Assembly: GCA_963726245.1 (NCBI GenBank)
Contig: CAVSBT010000019.1
Span: 32,001 to 96,000 of the forward strand
Length of the DNA: 64,000 nucleotides
Source: an uncultured Chloroflexia bacterium
GTDB lineage: Bacteria > Chloroflexota > Dehalococcoidia > DSTF01 > JALHUB01
Direction of reading: 5' to 3'
Under the pieces are notes generated by a model that worked only from the letters and a program-made list of their open reading frames with translations, did not search any database and was not told where the DNA came from. The translations under genes and the position numbers were made by a program. This document shows, piece by piece, positions 38,230-47,342 of the stretch. Each line of letters starts with the position of its first letter. Positions within the stretch are counted from its first letter, which is position 1.

Positions 38230-38324
38230 CGAACGGATAAGCGGATGGCCCTCATCCGATTATCCGTTTCCATGAATCCGTTGTGAGAAGAGACAGCCGA
38301 CCCCCAGACAGGAGGGAGGAGTCG

Positions 38325-38510
38325 ATGACGACTGAGCACGAGCCTGCGCAGGTCATGGTGGCGCTGCCCTTGGGCACGCTGCGACTGCTGGTAGGGAGCA
38401 TCATCGTCGCCATCCTGGTCATGCTCCCCATACTGGCCTTCGAGATCGTCATCCTCCTCCAGGTCTTTCACATCGTCGACCTGCTGGAGCGGCTGGCGCC
38501 GGCGGGCTGA
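38325..38510 (+). CDS. Small membrane protein
   Basis: RBS ggaggga; hydrophobic core. Confidence 0.6.
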   Translation: MTTEHEPAQVMVALPLGTLRLLVGSIIVAILVMLPILAFEIVILLQVFHIVDLLERLAPAG

Positions 38511-42548: not shown

Positions 42549-43223
42549 CTAGGCCTCCTTCTCCTCACCGTTTTTCCGCAGGCCCTTGCGGGCGATGAAG
42601 GCGGCGGCTTCGGCTCGACGGCGCAGGTTCAGCTTGCTGAGGATGCTGCTGACGTAGTTCTTGACCGTCTTATCGCTGAGGAAGATCTCCTCCGCGATCT
42701 CCTTGTTCGTCTTGCCTTCGGCGATGAGGAGAAGGATCTTCTGCTCCTGGTCTGAGAGGCTGGCCAGGCTGTCGTCGGGCCGGCGGCCGCCCAGGCTGCG
42801 CACCCGCTCCAGCACCTTTTGAGTGACAGCCGGGTCCAGCAGAGAGCCGCCGTCGGCCACCGCCTCGATGGCTTCCGCCAGAGCCTGCCCCCGCGTCTGC
42901 TTCAGGAGATAGCCCGCCGCGCCGGCCAGGATCGAGGCGAAGACAGCCTCGTCATCGGCGTAGGACGTGAGCATGATGACCTTGGTATCCGGATACTCCT
43001 GCCGGATCTCGCGACAAGCCTCCACGCCGCTACCGTCGGGCAGCCGCACGTCCATGATCACCACTTCCGGGCGGAGCCGAGACGCTTCCTCGATCGCCGT
43101 GGCGACGGTGCCTGCCTCTCCTACCACGTTGATGCCCTCGCGCCGGTTCAAGAGGGAGCGCAGCCCCTCCCGCACGACTTCGTGGTCGTCCACGATGAGC
43201 ACTCTCAGAGGTCTGTCAGTCAT
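42549..43223 (-). CDS. NarL/LuxR response regulator, DosR/DevR-like
   Basis: VDDHEVVREG, MDVRLPDGSGVEACREI, TNKEIA, KTVKNYVSSILSKL. Confidence 0.93.
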   Translation of the reverse strand: MTDRPLRVLIVDDHEVVREGLRSLLNRREGINVVGEAGTVATAIEEASRLRPEVVIMDVRLPDGSGVEACREIRQEYPDTKVIMLTSYADDEAVFASILAGAAGYLLKQTRGQALAEAIEAVADGGSLLDPAVTQKVLERVRSLGGRRPDDSLASLSDQEQKILLLIAEGKTNKEIAEEIFLSDKTVKNYVSSILSKLNLRRRAEAAAFIARKGLRKNGEEKEA

Positions 43224-45062
43224 TGTTGTCCCTCCATACTACCCATGGGGACCTCCACCACCACAGTTGTGCCCTTCCCGGGGGAGCTCTCCAGCGAGAG
43301 ATGCCCTCCGAGACTCTGGGCCCGCTCCGCCATGTTGCCCAGGCCCCTGTGCTCTGGCTCGGCGCCGCGTCCCGGCGCAAAGCCGATCCCGTTGTCGGAG
43401 ATGGCCAGCCGGAGAAGGCCGTTCCGCGTCGTCACACGCGCCTCTACCGCCGACGCGCGGGCGTGCTTCTGCACGTTGGCCAAGGCTTCCTGTGCTATGT
43501 GGAAGAGATTGCTGACCTGGTCTCCCGTCAGTGTCGCGCTCAGATCCCGGCCGCCGTCCACCACCAGGTTGGCTTCGATGAGGCTGTTGACCCGCAGCTC
43601 CCGGACGAGGGTGGACAGGGCGTCCGTAAAGTCCGAGGACTCGAGGGCGCCGGGGCGCAGGTCAAAGATGTAGTTGCGGATGTCCTTGATAACCTGGTTG
43701 AGGTCGTTGATGGCCTTGTCCAGCCGCGCCCGCACGTCCTGGGGCTGATCGAACACCTCCTCGGTGCACTCCTCCAGGTTCAGGCCCACGGCGTAGATCG
43801 ACTGAATGACGCCGTCGTGCAGGTCCATGCCGATGCGCTGGCGCTCCTCCAGCACCGCCAGGGACTGTACCCGTTCGTAGAGGCCGGCGTTCTCGACGGC
43901 GATGGCCGCCAAATTGGCGAAGGCCTGGAGCAACTGCGCGTCGTGCTCCGAGAAGTGGGTGGGCGTCCGGTTGGCCACGTCAAGGACTCCCAGGAGTTTG
44001 CCCTTGGCAGCGAAGCGGGCCGCGATGAAGGAGATCAGCCCTTCCTCCACGATCTCGGGGATGGGCGGCGCGGTGCGCCGGTCGGTCAGGTAATCCTTGA
44101 TGATGGCAGGGCCTTCCTCTTCTGTCGGCGGCTCAGGCGCGGTCTGGCTGACGGCGATCCGGAGATTGCGAACGGCCGCGGTGCGGAGGCCCACGGACGC
44201 GGCCATGACCAGCTCGTCCCGGCTGGGTGAGAGCAGGGTGAGCATGGCGGTGTCGGTCCTGAGCAGCTCCTGGGCCTGCTGCACCACCGTCTCCAGCAGG
44301 GCGTGCAGGTCGAGGCTGGCGGCCACCTGCTCGCCCAGCTCGAAGACGCTCCTCCACTCCTGGGCGCGGCGCCGCTCCTCCTGGTAGAGGCGCGCGTTCT
44401 CGATGGCCACTGCCGCCTGCGCGGCGAAGAGGGTGACGGCGTCCTGGTCCTGCTGGCTGAACTCGGCGCCGCCTTCCTTCTCCGTCAGGTACAGGTCGCC
44501 GATGGTGCGCCCCTTGTAGACGATGGGAAGACCCAGCAGGGTGCGCATCACGGGATGGTTCGGAGGGAAACCGGCCGATTGGGGATGGGCGCTGATGTCG
44601 GCCAGGCGCAGCGCCAGGCCCTCGCGCATGATGAGGCCTAGCACTCCTTTACCCTCGGGAGGGTGCCCGATGCGCTCTCGCTCTTCGGCGCTGATGCCGG
44701 AGGTGATGAACTCCCGGATCCGGCCCTGCTCGTCGAGAACGCCCAGGGCCCCGTAGCGCGCCTGTGCCACCTGGCGGCTGAGGTCCACCACCTTCTGCAA
44801 GACGGCTTCCAGCGACAGCTCAGAGGTGAGGCTGAAGCTGGCCTCGTTGAGGGCCGCCAGGCGCGCCTGAGCGTCCTCCACGGCCCGAAAGATGAGCCTG
44901 GAGAAGAACACGGCGCCCAGGAGGGTTACGGCAGCCGCCATCAGAGCAGCCAGCCAGGGCGCAGTCAGGGGTTCGACGACGGTCACCGTGACCGCTTCGA
45001 GGGTCAGTAGAAAGGCCGCCGGAATGACGATAGTGGCCCAGCGCAGACGAGAGAACTTACAC
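43220..45062 (-). CDS. Membrane GAF-GAF HisKA_3 sensor kinase, DosS/DosT-like
   Basis: 2 TM; SAGFPPNHPVM (DosS GAF-A heme-His motif); ERQRIGMDLHDGVIQ; EALANVQKHA; DNGIGF. Confidence 0.9.
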
Positions 45063-45147
45063 CTTCCTTCTTGATCGCGCGCGCAGCTTCGCGATGTCAT
45101 TATACAACAGCAGCCGTATCTGAGGCCCCTGGCGCGAGCATCGGGGC

Positions 45148-45214
45148 TAGGCCGAATGGCCCTCGCAGATTGGTACGGACGGCCCTTAAAGTTGGTGAGA
45201 GTTGTCACTAAAGT
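45148..45214. promoter_or_regulatory. Putative DosR/DevR-like binding boxes
   Basis: taggccgaatggccct (45148-63) and ggtacggacggccct (45172-86) resemble the GGGAC-N4-GTCCC Dev box. Confidence 0.45.
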
Positions 45215-45258
45215 GTTGGCATAGCGGTGGGCCCTCAGAAGCCCACTCGCGTAGAAGC

Positions 45259-45335
45259 GTCTCCCTCCCTCCGCGGGTCGGGGCGCCCTTACGGGTTGAC
45301 GTACCGCCGCTGGCCCCGAGGACGCCCCGGCCACA
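45259..45335 (+). ncRNA. Candidate sRNA module, copy 1 (CU-rich tract + long hairpin)
   Basis: gtctccctccctccgc then ggtcggggcg...cgccccggcc stem; paralog at 45465. Confidence 0.55.
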
Positions 45336-45464
45336 ATAAGCGGAGGTTTGACGATACGGCGAGAACGGCTTACAAGAGTAGCAGAGGAGGCTTCGCTAGG
45401 CTGCTACTGAGTTGAACCCCTCGGCTGGATTGGCCGGTTGGCATGGGGTCCGGCTCCCAAACTA

Positions 45465-45544
45465 GTCTCCCTCCCTCCGCTGGTCGGGGTGTTTTCGCGG
45501 GCTGAGCCGCCGCTGGCTCCGAGGACGCCCCGACCACACTTTTT
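45465..45544 (+). ncRNA. Candidate sRNA module, copy 2, ending in a U-tract
   Basis: Same 16-nt tract; 17-bp stem tggtcggggtgttttcg/cgaggacgccccgacca; ttttt; upstream TTGACG-N17-TACAAG (45348-45376). Confidence 0.6.
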
Positions 45545-45550
45545 GCCCCA

Positions 45551-45622
45551 GATTGCGTCAGCGACCCCAACGGCCTCGACGAGGACAACGACGGGACACC
45601 GTGTGAGAGCCTGTGTAGGTGA
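45551..45622 (+). pseudogene. Excalibur Ca-binding domain C-terminal remnant
   Basis: Translates DCVSDPNGLDEDNDGTPCESLCR*, matching D.D.DG..CE. Confidence 0.6.
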
Positions 45623-46021
45623 GCAGCAGGCGGTGTGGCATAGCACACTAAGAGTACATGGTGCCTCAAGGCTGGCCCATATACCCTTCAGAGTCAACCG
45701 CTTCCAGATACGGATGGGGTTTTGGCACCCCACAGGCGGTCAGGGGTAGAAGCGCCCCCGAAGGTTAACGCTGCTTCGCCTATTCACCCTCTCTCTGAGG
45801 CGACAGCGGCTCACCCCCACAATCGAGAGCCCCAGGCCTTGGGGCTGGTGTTGCTGATCCCGTGGACGCCGCTTCCGACGGCACCGATTGTGCGGCCAAG
45901 GGATCGGCTGGCTGGCCTGCACCCTGTGGCAGTGCAGGAAGGAACAGGGTAGACTAAGCCGGATCCTGCGTGGAGCGGGGGATAGGTCTCTGGGCGGCGC
46001 AGGCAAGGGGGGTGTTTGACG

Positions 46022-47342
46022 ATGCTGCCAAGATTCCGACGCGGATTCCTTCTCGCAGCCGTGCTCCTCGTCGCTGGTCTCCTCCTGTTGAGCTGCGGTG
46101 GGGGAGAGAAGGAGGCCGCTGAGACGCCTGTGTCGACAACCGGCACTGAGACGCCGGGCTCTCAGAAAGTGCCGGGTGTGACGGACACGGAGATCTTGAT
46201 TGGGGCCAATTTCCCGCTAAGCCAGTCGCCGGCGTCGGCGTATGCCGTCATCGCCGACGCCATGCGGGCCTACTTCGACTACATCAACTCGCAAGGGGGC
46301 ATCTACGGCCGAAAGATAAGGTTCATTGTTGGGCGATGACCACTACAACCCGGCCGATGCGGTCGAGGTGGTGCGAAAGCTCGTCGAGCAGGACCAGGTT
46401 TTCGCTATCGTCGGTGGCCTCGGCGACCCGACCCAGCTCGCCGTCATAGACTATCTGGAAGAGAAAGGCGTGCCCGACCTCTTCCTGGGCGGCGGCATCG
46501 TGAAGTTCACCGAGCCCGTGGTGAAGACGCGCTTTGCCATGACGTTGGACTACGGGACAGAAGTGAAAGCAATGGTGGACTACCTCAAGAAGAACTATGG
46601 CGGGAAGAGGATGGGCATCATCTATCAGAGCGATACAGCCGGCACCTCCAGCATGGAGATGATGACCGAGGCACTGAAGGACAGCGACATCGAGATCGTC
46701 TCCAGGCAGTCATACGACTTTGTCCAGTGCGACCTCACCGCGCAGATGCAGCGGCTAAAGGCCGACAATCCCGACTTTGTTGACCTCATGGCTAACCCGG
46801 GCGCGGCCGCTAGCGCGATCAAGGTAGCGCGAGAGGTTCTCAATTGGGACGTACCTTTTGTCTCCAGCGCCGTTTCCGCCGTTGAGTTCACGATAGCCCT
46901 GGCGGGCGCCAAGAACGCTGAGGGTACTGTCAGCCTGACCACCGGCAAAATGATATCGGAGACGGACGACGCCGGCGTGCAGCGCCACATCGAGATCATG
47001 AAGCAGTTCGCTCCTAACGTGGCGCCGAGCTCTCTGACCGAGTACGGCATGACTGTCGCCGAACTCTTTGTTCAGGCGCTGAAGAACGCCGGCCCGAACC
47101 TGACCCGGGAGAGCATCGTGGAGGGCGCCGAAAGCATTCGCGACTTCTGCTGCCTCACTTGCGTGGCGCCTGTGAACCTCAGCCCAACCGATCATCGAGC
47201 GTCAGAGACTATGTGGTTCGAAAGGGTCGAGAACGGCAAGTGGGTGCGGTTTGGCGAGCCCGTGAGCTACGAATCGACGCCCGGCAAAGTCGTCGCCTGC
47301 AAGGGCGCGGGAGAGCCCGTTTACGCCGGCGGAGGGGAGTGA
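46022..47342 (+). CDS. Branched-chain amino acid (LivJ/PBP1) type ABC substrate-binding lipoprotein; frameshift near 46330
   Basis: Lipobox LLSC; PGVTDTEI; GGIYGRKI; DDHYNP. Confidence 0.88.

Follow-up and report, generated by a model that had tools for sequence, protein, structure and literature searches.

A conserved two-module RNA element predicted at the 3′ end of a usp operon, apparently orphaned by deletion in a Dehalococcoidia genome

The divergent locus and its paired modules

The window, a 64,000-nt stretch of DNA from a Dehalococcoidia metagenome-assembled genome (G000; 2.68 Mb, 83% completeness), contains leftward-transcribed genes for a sensor kinase and its partner response regulator, and to their right an intergenic region with two paralogous modules (Table 1). 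The kinase had been predicted to be DosS-like, and this is borne out by its first GAF domain, which matches the GAF domain of DevS/DosT, solved alone, with E values of 7e-40 and 2.8e-41; we take the domain matched to be the heme-binding GAF-A. The histidine of a 'PNHP' motif and the tyrosine of an 'LYLT' motif align with the corresponding DevS residues, presumably the heme ligand and the distal residue, respectively. With this GAF-A domain, the HisKA_3 and HATPase_c domains of the kinase and the receiver and LuxR/GerE domains of the regulator, the neighbouring genes have the composition of a DevS/DosS–DevR/DosR-type system. Compared with G001, a genome of the same genus, the kinase lacks ~500 nt corresponding to one GAF domain, with the reading frame kept (blastn end points), and a 5-nt difference at its start means that the GTG start codon of the relatives is followed here by a TAA (44857–44860 and the 45060–45075 region). 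One contig of a public run (X1) diverges from the window at 44857 and may represent a longer kinase allele.

The region between the kinase and the modules contains a TATAAT on the minus strand on the kinase side (45104–45099), and the palindrome that had been described upstream of the kinase is present as AGGCC-GAAT-GGCCC at 45149–45162. It reads GGGCC-GAAT-GGCCC in six of 10 aligned loci, and the window, L084, L070 and L095 are each one base off. In its layout the palindrome appears to resemble a DevR box, and the regulator may bind here. A candidate plus-strand promoter (TTAAAG at 45186–45191, a 17-nt spacing, and TAAAGT at 45209–45214) was picked out by eye and is below the threshold of the promoter scan, which returned 0 sites in 44900–46200.

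The sequence and a repeat finder agree with the original prediction that there are two paralogous modules, each of ~76 nt and on the plus strand (45259–45337 and 45465–45540), with an offset between the copies of 206/203 nt. Both open with the identical 16-nt CU tract GTCTCCCTCCCTCCGC, and a long imperfect hairpin lies 3′ of each tract. Module 2 folds at −42.6 kcal/mol (z −4.56; none of 200 shuffles equal) and the 327-nt stretch 45222–45548 has a z of −3.78 (none of 100 shuffles equal); the fold of module 1 taken alone is not exceptional (z −1.09).

Table 1. Coordinates in the window of the genes and elements discussed in the text
Feature	Position	Strand	Description
NarL/LuxR-type response regulator	42549..43223	−	Response_reg E 1.1e-28, GerE E 8.8e-19 (Pfam); downstream partner of the kinase
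DevS/DosS-like kinase	43220..45100	−	GAF-GAF-HisKA_3-HATPase_c (Pfam); start codon uncertain
Divergent promoter and leader region, retained	45099..45221		Conserved blocks in a 10-locus alignment
Deletion junction	45230..45244		~1.05 kb missing relative to G001/L092 (blastn and pairwise alignment)
Module 1	45259..45337	+	Tract 45259–45274, hairpin ~45276–45332, no T-run; R1 86 bits, E 9e-16
CGGAG element	45341..45345	+	Predicted to pair with CUCCG 45269–45273 of tract 1, closing hairpin 1
Spacer hairpin GTAGCAG...CTGCTAC	45378..45407	+	GGAGG 45386–45390 in the loop
Module 2	45465..45544	+	Tract 45465–45480, hairpin ~45481–45536, TTTTT 45540–45544; R1 96 bits

The stem differences between the two copies place C or U opposite G, or A or G opposite U, and pairing is therefore kept on the plus strand only, as had been noted. 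The proposal of a plus-strand RNA structure is likewise supported by the wider set of modules, in which standard pairs occupy 98.7% of the pair cells on this strand (32–56% when the partners are slid), 98 of 626 pair cells are G-U and become A-C mismatches if the minus strand is read, and the plus strand gives the better fold in 22 of 26 distinct modules. Covariation, which the original prediction had offered as a check, did not come out in its favour: in a clean alignment (A4) both sides change in two pairs, a number reached by 157 of 500 shuffles, and the covariation score of 0.159 is not above expectation (0.165 for shuffles). An earlier count that looked significant was an artefact of two reverse-strand rows in the alignment. 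We infer the strand, the ends and the expression of the RNA from sequence.

The U-run reported at the end of copy 2 is present directly 3′ of the hairpin, and among distinct sequences a T-run of at least four is seen behind 16 of 20 type-2 modules and behind none of 14 type-1 modules. The GC-rich hairpin plus U-run expected of an intrinsic terminator is thus found in module 2 and is missing from module 1, and a simple terminator scan returned only a small sub-hairpin. Module 2 is most likely the intrinsic terminator of the unit, with transcription predicted to end there.

In the fold predicted by RNAalifold from 18 full units, the helix between CGGAG and the CUCCG of tract 1 has all five pairs in 18 of 18 units, with one G-U variant; it is without covariation because the tract never varies. 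The GGAGG in the loop of the spacer hairpin is instead paired by RNAalifold with the 3′ half of tract 2 (45474–45481), with pairs kept in 16–18 of the 18 units. The stem of the spacer hairpin varies in sequence among the window, G001 and G007 with pairing still possible (by eye), the 5′ half of each tract is left free in the predicted fold, and the C-rich apical loops are kept across modules. Units with a single module have a purine-rich partner ~30 nt downstream (by eye).

Two other features lie to the right of the modules. A dispersed repeat (45650–45737, core 45704–45735) lies ~160 nt downstream of module 2; it has 10–11 copies on both strands of G000 and up to 23 in one other genome (G019), is found in 19 of 41 genomes searched, mostly of families f1 and f3, and occurs in metagenome contigs at high depth with many different flanks; it is unmatched in Rfam and lacks clear hairpin covariation. 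Beyond this is a periplasmic binding protein gene (46016–47342) with a lipoprotein-like start at 46023, which is split near 46326–46339, perhaps by a single-base assembly error, into two overlapping frames that both match Peripla_BP_6.

Distribution and operon context in relatives

A cmscan of 44000–47000 against Rfam 15, another of the checks proposed, returned no relevant family at E up to 10, including 6C, cuckoo and the mycobacterial sRNAs; the sole match overlapping the modules was an animal microRNA model at 20 bits, its gathering score being 100. The element therefore belongs to no RNA family described in Rfam 15, and a full-text search of open-access papers and bioRxiv found no description of it.

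Only two copies of the module are present in the whole G000 genome, and G001, G004 and G007 have one or two each. With only two copies in the genome, the modules do not constitute a dispersed REP/MITE family, the outcome that would have spoken against the original prediction. A BLAST search over 61 genomes found modules in G001, G007 and G004, and scanning GTDB, with one genome for each species, for the exact pattern returned the same three genomes. A covariance model (R1) built from seven modules and run over 93 genomes of the order gave strong matches in four of them, G000 included; three weak matches (E 0.04–0.07) apparently lie inside coding sequence (by eye) and were rejected. Contig ends overlap inside the element in G001 (C167/C174) and in G007 (C38/C231), such that each genome contains one tandem pair and the three hits in G007 represent two copies; G004 has a single module.

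Metagenomes were scanned for exact matches to a 21-nt sequence spanning parts of tract and stem, a search that inflates the apparent conservation of most of the metagenome loci, and yielded 31 stretches, 30 of them distinct (L083 duplicates L067). Modules are present in 23 of the 30 (R1, E up to 1e-10), and the remaining seven contain the 21-mer only and were treated as chance or unrelated matches: one is in apparent coding sequence, two (L078 and L003, the latter from the window's own genome) are in the leader of a receiver gene, and four or five are near genes that we took by eye to be PhnB-like. Of three further partial matches, one is a tRNA gene, one a ribosome binding site and one a degenerate tract. 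A degenerate tract-like sequence in G004 (C19:43072–43100; L118 773–801), which shares 24 of 28 letters with the module start and has no module hairpin, sits ~45 nt past the stop codon of a LuxR-type gene.

The genes missing from the window are evident in its relatives. In all three related genomes that have modules (G001, G004 and G007), as well as in metagenome loci, a same-strand usp gene, coding for a 179-residue universal stress protein (Pfam Usp, E 1e-23 to 1e-25), ends 4–8 nt before the start of module 1. At two-module loci, usp is preceded by a gene for a 168-residue receiver-like protein, whose Pfam Response_reg match of 18.6 bits is under the cut-off, and the receiver-like/usp operon is divergent from the GAF-rich HisKA_3 kinase and the NarL/LuxR regulator. 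The expected synteny with the kinase is kept in every relative whose sequence extends to the kinase gene, and nadE is convergent downstream in 15 loci. The single-module loci (G004 and L071) do not have the receiver-like gene; they represent one lineage, so we merely remark on the match between module number and gene number. The usp paralogues of G004 and G007 are not followed by modules.

Across 10 intact loci, pairwise identity averages 98% for module 1 (97% outside the search pattern) and 96% for module 2 (94% outside the search pattern), compared with 87% for usp, 68% for the spacer and 48% for the downstream flank. The modules are thus conserved above the level of the usp coding gene, even in their loops and in the 5′ half of the tract, which is left unpaired. 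No base of the tract has changed in G001, G004 and G007, the genomes identified by BLAST, or in module 1 of L090, a locus found by the model only.

In the relatives the modules form one unit of ~290 nt, from 4–8 nt past the usp stop codon to the T-run past module 2, in the same-strand 3′ UTR of an mRNA and ending at its terminator, which is the position of a 3′-UTR-derived RNA. As far as sequence can tell, both modules belong as domains to a single conserved, structured RNA of ~290 nt, predicted on the plus strand at the 3′ end of the usp operon. Of the tandem sRNA genes originally proposed, the structured plus-strand RNA stands, but as a single unit behind usp rather than as separate genes.

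Deletions of the coding genes beside the modules

The window aligns with G001 across the regulator and kinase genes and a further 166 nt of intergenic sequence, at which point the alignment jumps. The deletion extends from just before the ribosome binding site of the receiver-like gene to ~4 codons (11 nt) before the usp stop codon, removing both genes and fusing the conserved promoter/leader region to the modules; remnants beside the junction are still recognisable. Contigs of two public runs from different studies, X1 (45150–45376) and X3 (45165–45289), bridge the junction, and one of these runs is possibly the source sample. The window-type alleles in the bridging contigs have differences upstream of module 1 or in the spacer, and none in the modules. 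A search for a usp orthologue elsewhere in G000 gave 0 matches at E up to 1e-15, an absence that is unproven since the genome is incomplete. A small ORF (45227–45415; 62 residues) spans the deletion junction, is not conserved, and was dismissed as a gene.

The state of usp could be judged in 23 loci with enough upstream DNA, of which 16 have an intact gene and seven a disrupted one, with six distinct junctions among the seven and intact modules in all. The window has lost the receiver-like gene and usp together. The deletion with a junction shared by L067 and L095 starts near codon 56 of the receiver-like gene and ends near codon 158 of usp, L070 has lost an internal part of usp and L089 the whole of it, and the first part of usp is gone at a junction common to L079 and L094, with an additional second deletion inside usp in L094. 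Modules score 85–98 bits with R1 in the deletion loci and 86–98 bits in the intact loci. Sparing of the modules in every deletion is not evidence in itself, because the loci were found through the modules.

The right-hand junctions are clustered in the last 110 nt of usp, beside the hairpin, which could reflect either selection or slippage stimulated by the hairpin. Deletions in the receiver-like and usp genes of L067, L095, L070, L089, L079, L094 and L090 lie between short microhomologies. The receiver-like gene of L090 is missing ~60 nt of the L092 reference, with a 16-nt overlap of the blastn matches that leaves length and frame uncertain. Judged from these alignments, the window locus is an orphaned usp-operon 3′ UTR, its coding genes apparently lost by deletion.

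Possible roles and relation to known RNAs

CCUCC, the core of the anti-SD in the G000 16S rRNA, itself canonical at its 3′ end, occurs two times in each CU tract, and the ribosome binding sites of the receiver-like/usp operon carry GGAGG. Our preferred reading, held tentatively and with a little less than an even chance of being correct, is that the modules are a regulatory RNA of 3′-UTR type with anti-SD-like tracts, orphaned in the window. The 3′ end of the receiver-like/usp operon would be a structured RNA, divergent from the DevS/DosS-type heme-GAF kinase and NarL-type regulator and belonging to the regulatory, 3′-UTR-derived type; its CU tracts would bind ribosome binding sites rich in G, whether those of its own operon or those on other mRNAs, and the internal GGAG elements would mask the 3′ half of each tract. 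Expression would probably follow the DevS-like system via the palindrome in the shared promoter region. In the window, the ~1.05-kb deletion would leave a non-coding transcription unit of ~325 nt, roughly 45221–45546, if the retained promoter works. We are more doubtful of a stronger version, in which the usp 3′ UTR would be a dual-seed anti-SD riboregulator that serves as the post-transcriptional output of the DevS sensor and that was freed several times by near-precise deletions.

Potential targets were sought by complementarity. Sites that fit the 14-nt complement of the tract with up to two mismatches are not enriched in these genomes (in G000 66, versus 91 for a reversed control). The best match in trans lies outside the window, 28 kb away, where the leader of a stand-alone receiver gene (G000:C19:105282–105303; L003 1502–1522) is complementary over 22 nt, one of the pairs being G-U, to the tract and stem start of module 1; the same sequence is present in the metagenome homologue L078. 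A match of this quality was equalled in 12 of 200 shuffles (blastn) and is not significant, and the receiver gene with this leader was not found in G001, G004 or G007 (E up to 1e-25). The G-rich sequence GGAGGGAGG at 38310–38328, originally named as complementary, is a real ribosome binding site before an ATG and is a candidate target only.

Several other classes of element were considered and rejected. A minus-strand leader reading (GGAGGGAGGG, a short hairpin and ATG) depends on an ATG peculiar to the window; a recoding or SECIS-like signal does not fit with stop codons that vary between TAA and TAG (by eye); integron attC sites are discounted as there are no core sites and the junctions are inside coding sequence (by eye); and ANTAR dual hairpins have a different form, with no ANTAR domain here.

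Part of each tract is predicted to pair inside the RNA, and the tracts may therefore be structural only. This is the basis of a possible, if rather unlikely, explanation in which the element is a passive 3′ end, module 2 acting as terminator, module 1 and the spacer shielding the usp mRNA from 3′ exonucleases, and the CU tracts being conserved only for the GGAG helices without any trans or anti-SD action. It accounts for the T-run that follows module 2 in most (16 of 20) distinct sequences, the tract–GGAG pairings in 16–18 of 18 units, and the lack of both enriched complementary sites and a significant trans match. However, a mere stabiliser or terminator is usually tolerant of sequence change, and the modules (94–98%) outdo the coding gene (87%) with the loops and the unpaired half of the tract included; they are also intact where usp is gone, an observation biased by the way the loci were found.

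Alternatively, the modules in G000 may be a functionless relic of a decaying locus whose 3′ UTR has yet to decay, which we regard as unlikely. The shortened kinase and its disturbed start suggest that decay may extend to the whole locus, G000 yielded no usp, and the recognisable remnants beside the junction suggest a recent event. Yet the kinase frame is open over 626 codons with ~85% identity to residues 258–777 of the G001 kinase (tblastn), the deletion leaves promoter and leader in place and fused to the modules, and alleles with the same junction differ by ~2% but never inside the modules, albeit at few sites.

Conservation that exceeds the needs of pairing, two near-identical sites ~205 nt apart, and conserved C-rich apical loops are also compatible with a platform or sponge for a protein, for example one with a KH or S1 domain, or Rho, that would bind the single-stranded tract and hairpin twice and thereby govern decay, termination or titration of the bound protein. 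This is an improbable reading that is itself conjecture: no candidate protein is linked to the locus, and the neighbouring receiver-like protein has no RNA-binding domain (Pfam).

Finally, two independent tandem sRNA genes, the second with its own TTGACG-N17-TACAAG promoter, are very improbable, for although the hexamers are present in the window, as is the terminator of copy 2, the promoter scan finds none in 44900–46200, the hexamers are not conserved in G001, G007 and the metagenome units, and a module 1 that begins 4–8 nt past a stop codon, as in the relatives, could have a promoter of its own only inside the coding sequence. The 'gttggcat' noted before both copies is similarly present in the window but not conserved in relatives.

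A regulatory RNA of 3′-UTR type, as we prefer, would have counterparts elsewhere, and by analogy the element appears most like the 3′-UTR-derived sRNAs, the icaR-type 3′ UTR and the C-rich anti-SD sRNAs. CpxQ, reported by Chao and Vogel in 2016, is said to be an sRNA from the 3′ UTR of cpxP mRNA, within an envelope/stress regulon. The predicted module RNA is similarly at the 3′ end of a stress-gene mRNA, beside a two-component system and sharing the mRNA terminator, and like CpxQ-type RNAs it is conserved above the coding sequence; it differs in its length of ~290 nt and its two paralogous modules, and in the repeated deletion of its parent coding genes while the RNA stays. In the icaR mRNA of Staphylococcus aureus, a C-rich motif of the 3′ UTR pairs with the mRNA's own Shine-Dalgarno region. 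The module RNA also has a pyrimidine-rich, anti-SD-like motif in a 3′ UTR and an operon with GGAGG in its ribosome binding sites, but pairing with these sites is generic and predicted only, and the two tracts, the internal GGAG partners and the persistence without coding genes are further differences from icaR.

C-rich or CU-rich anti-SD sRNAs include the 'cuckoo'/NfeR1-type RNAs. Others are the 6C sRNA (PMC6486639) and the Rsa sRNAs, which have a conserved C-rich motif (PMC2790875). In common with these, the modules repeat a C/U-rich motif that is complementary to G-rich ribosome binding sites, at or in stable hairpins, in a GC-rich host genome with a canonical anti-SD; unlike them, the motif is a 16-nt 5′ tail of the hairpin and not a loop, no Rfam family is matched, and the range is narrow (four of 93 genomes of the order). 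DrrS/MTS1338 of Mycobacterium tuberculosis is a DosR-dependent sRNA. The modules are likewise linked to a DevS/DosS-type sensor system, but they have no sequence or model match to DrrS/MTS1338, are in a usp 3′ UTR, and are only presumed from the palindrome to be regulated by that system. Most unusual about them is that coding genes have repeatedly been lost next to an RNA element that is itself intact.

To our knowledge, almost nothing is known of regulatory RNAs in Dehalococcoidia. A 2026 paper (PMC12961961) describes itself as the first to reveal putative sRNAs of Dehalococcoides mccartyi. The module RNA provides a well-delimited candidate that outconserves the gene preceding it and is tied to a locus for a DevS-type heme sensor, and the module loci form a natural series of deletions that remove coding genes and retain the RNA. 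Without expression, the element would amount to no more than a terminator region of unusual conservation. If expressed, it would permit a direct test of how 3′ UTRs turn into independent sRNA genes, and would reveal whether an RNA arm exists in hypoxia/NO-type signalling beyond the actinobacteria. Should the riboregulator reading be true, these loci would be snapshots of the birth of a stand-alone sRNA gene from a 3′ UTR, and the window locus, reduced to promoter, leader and RNA, would show the process at its most complete.
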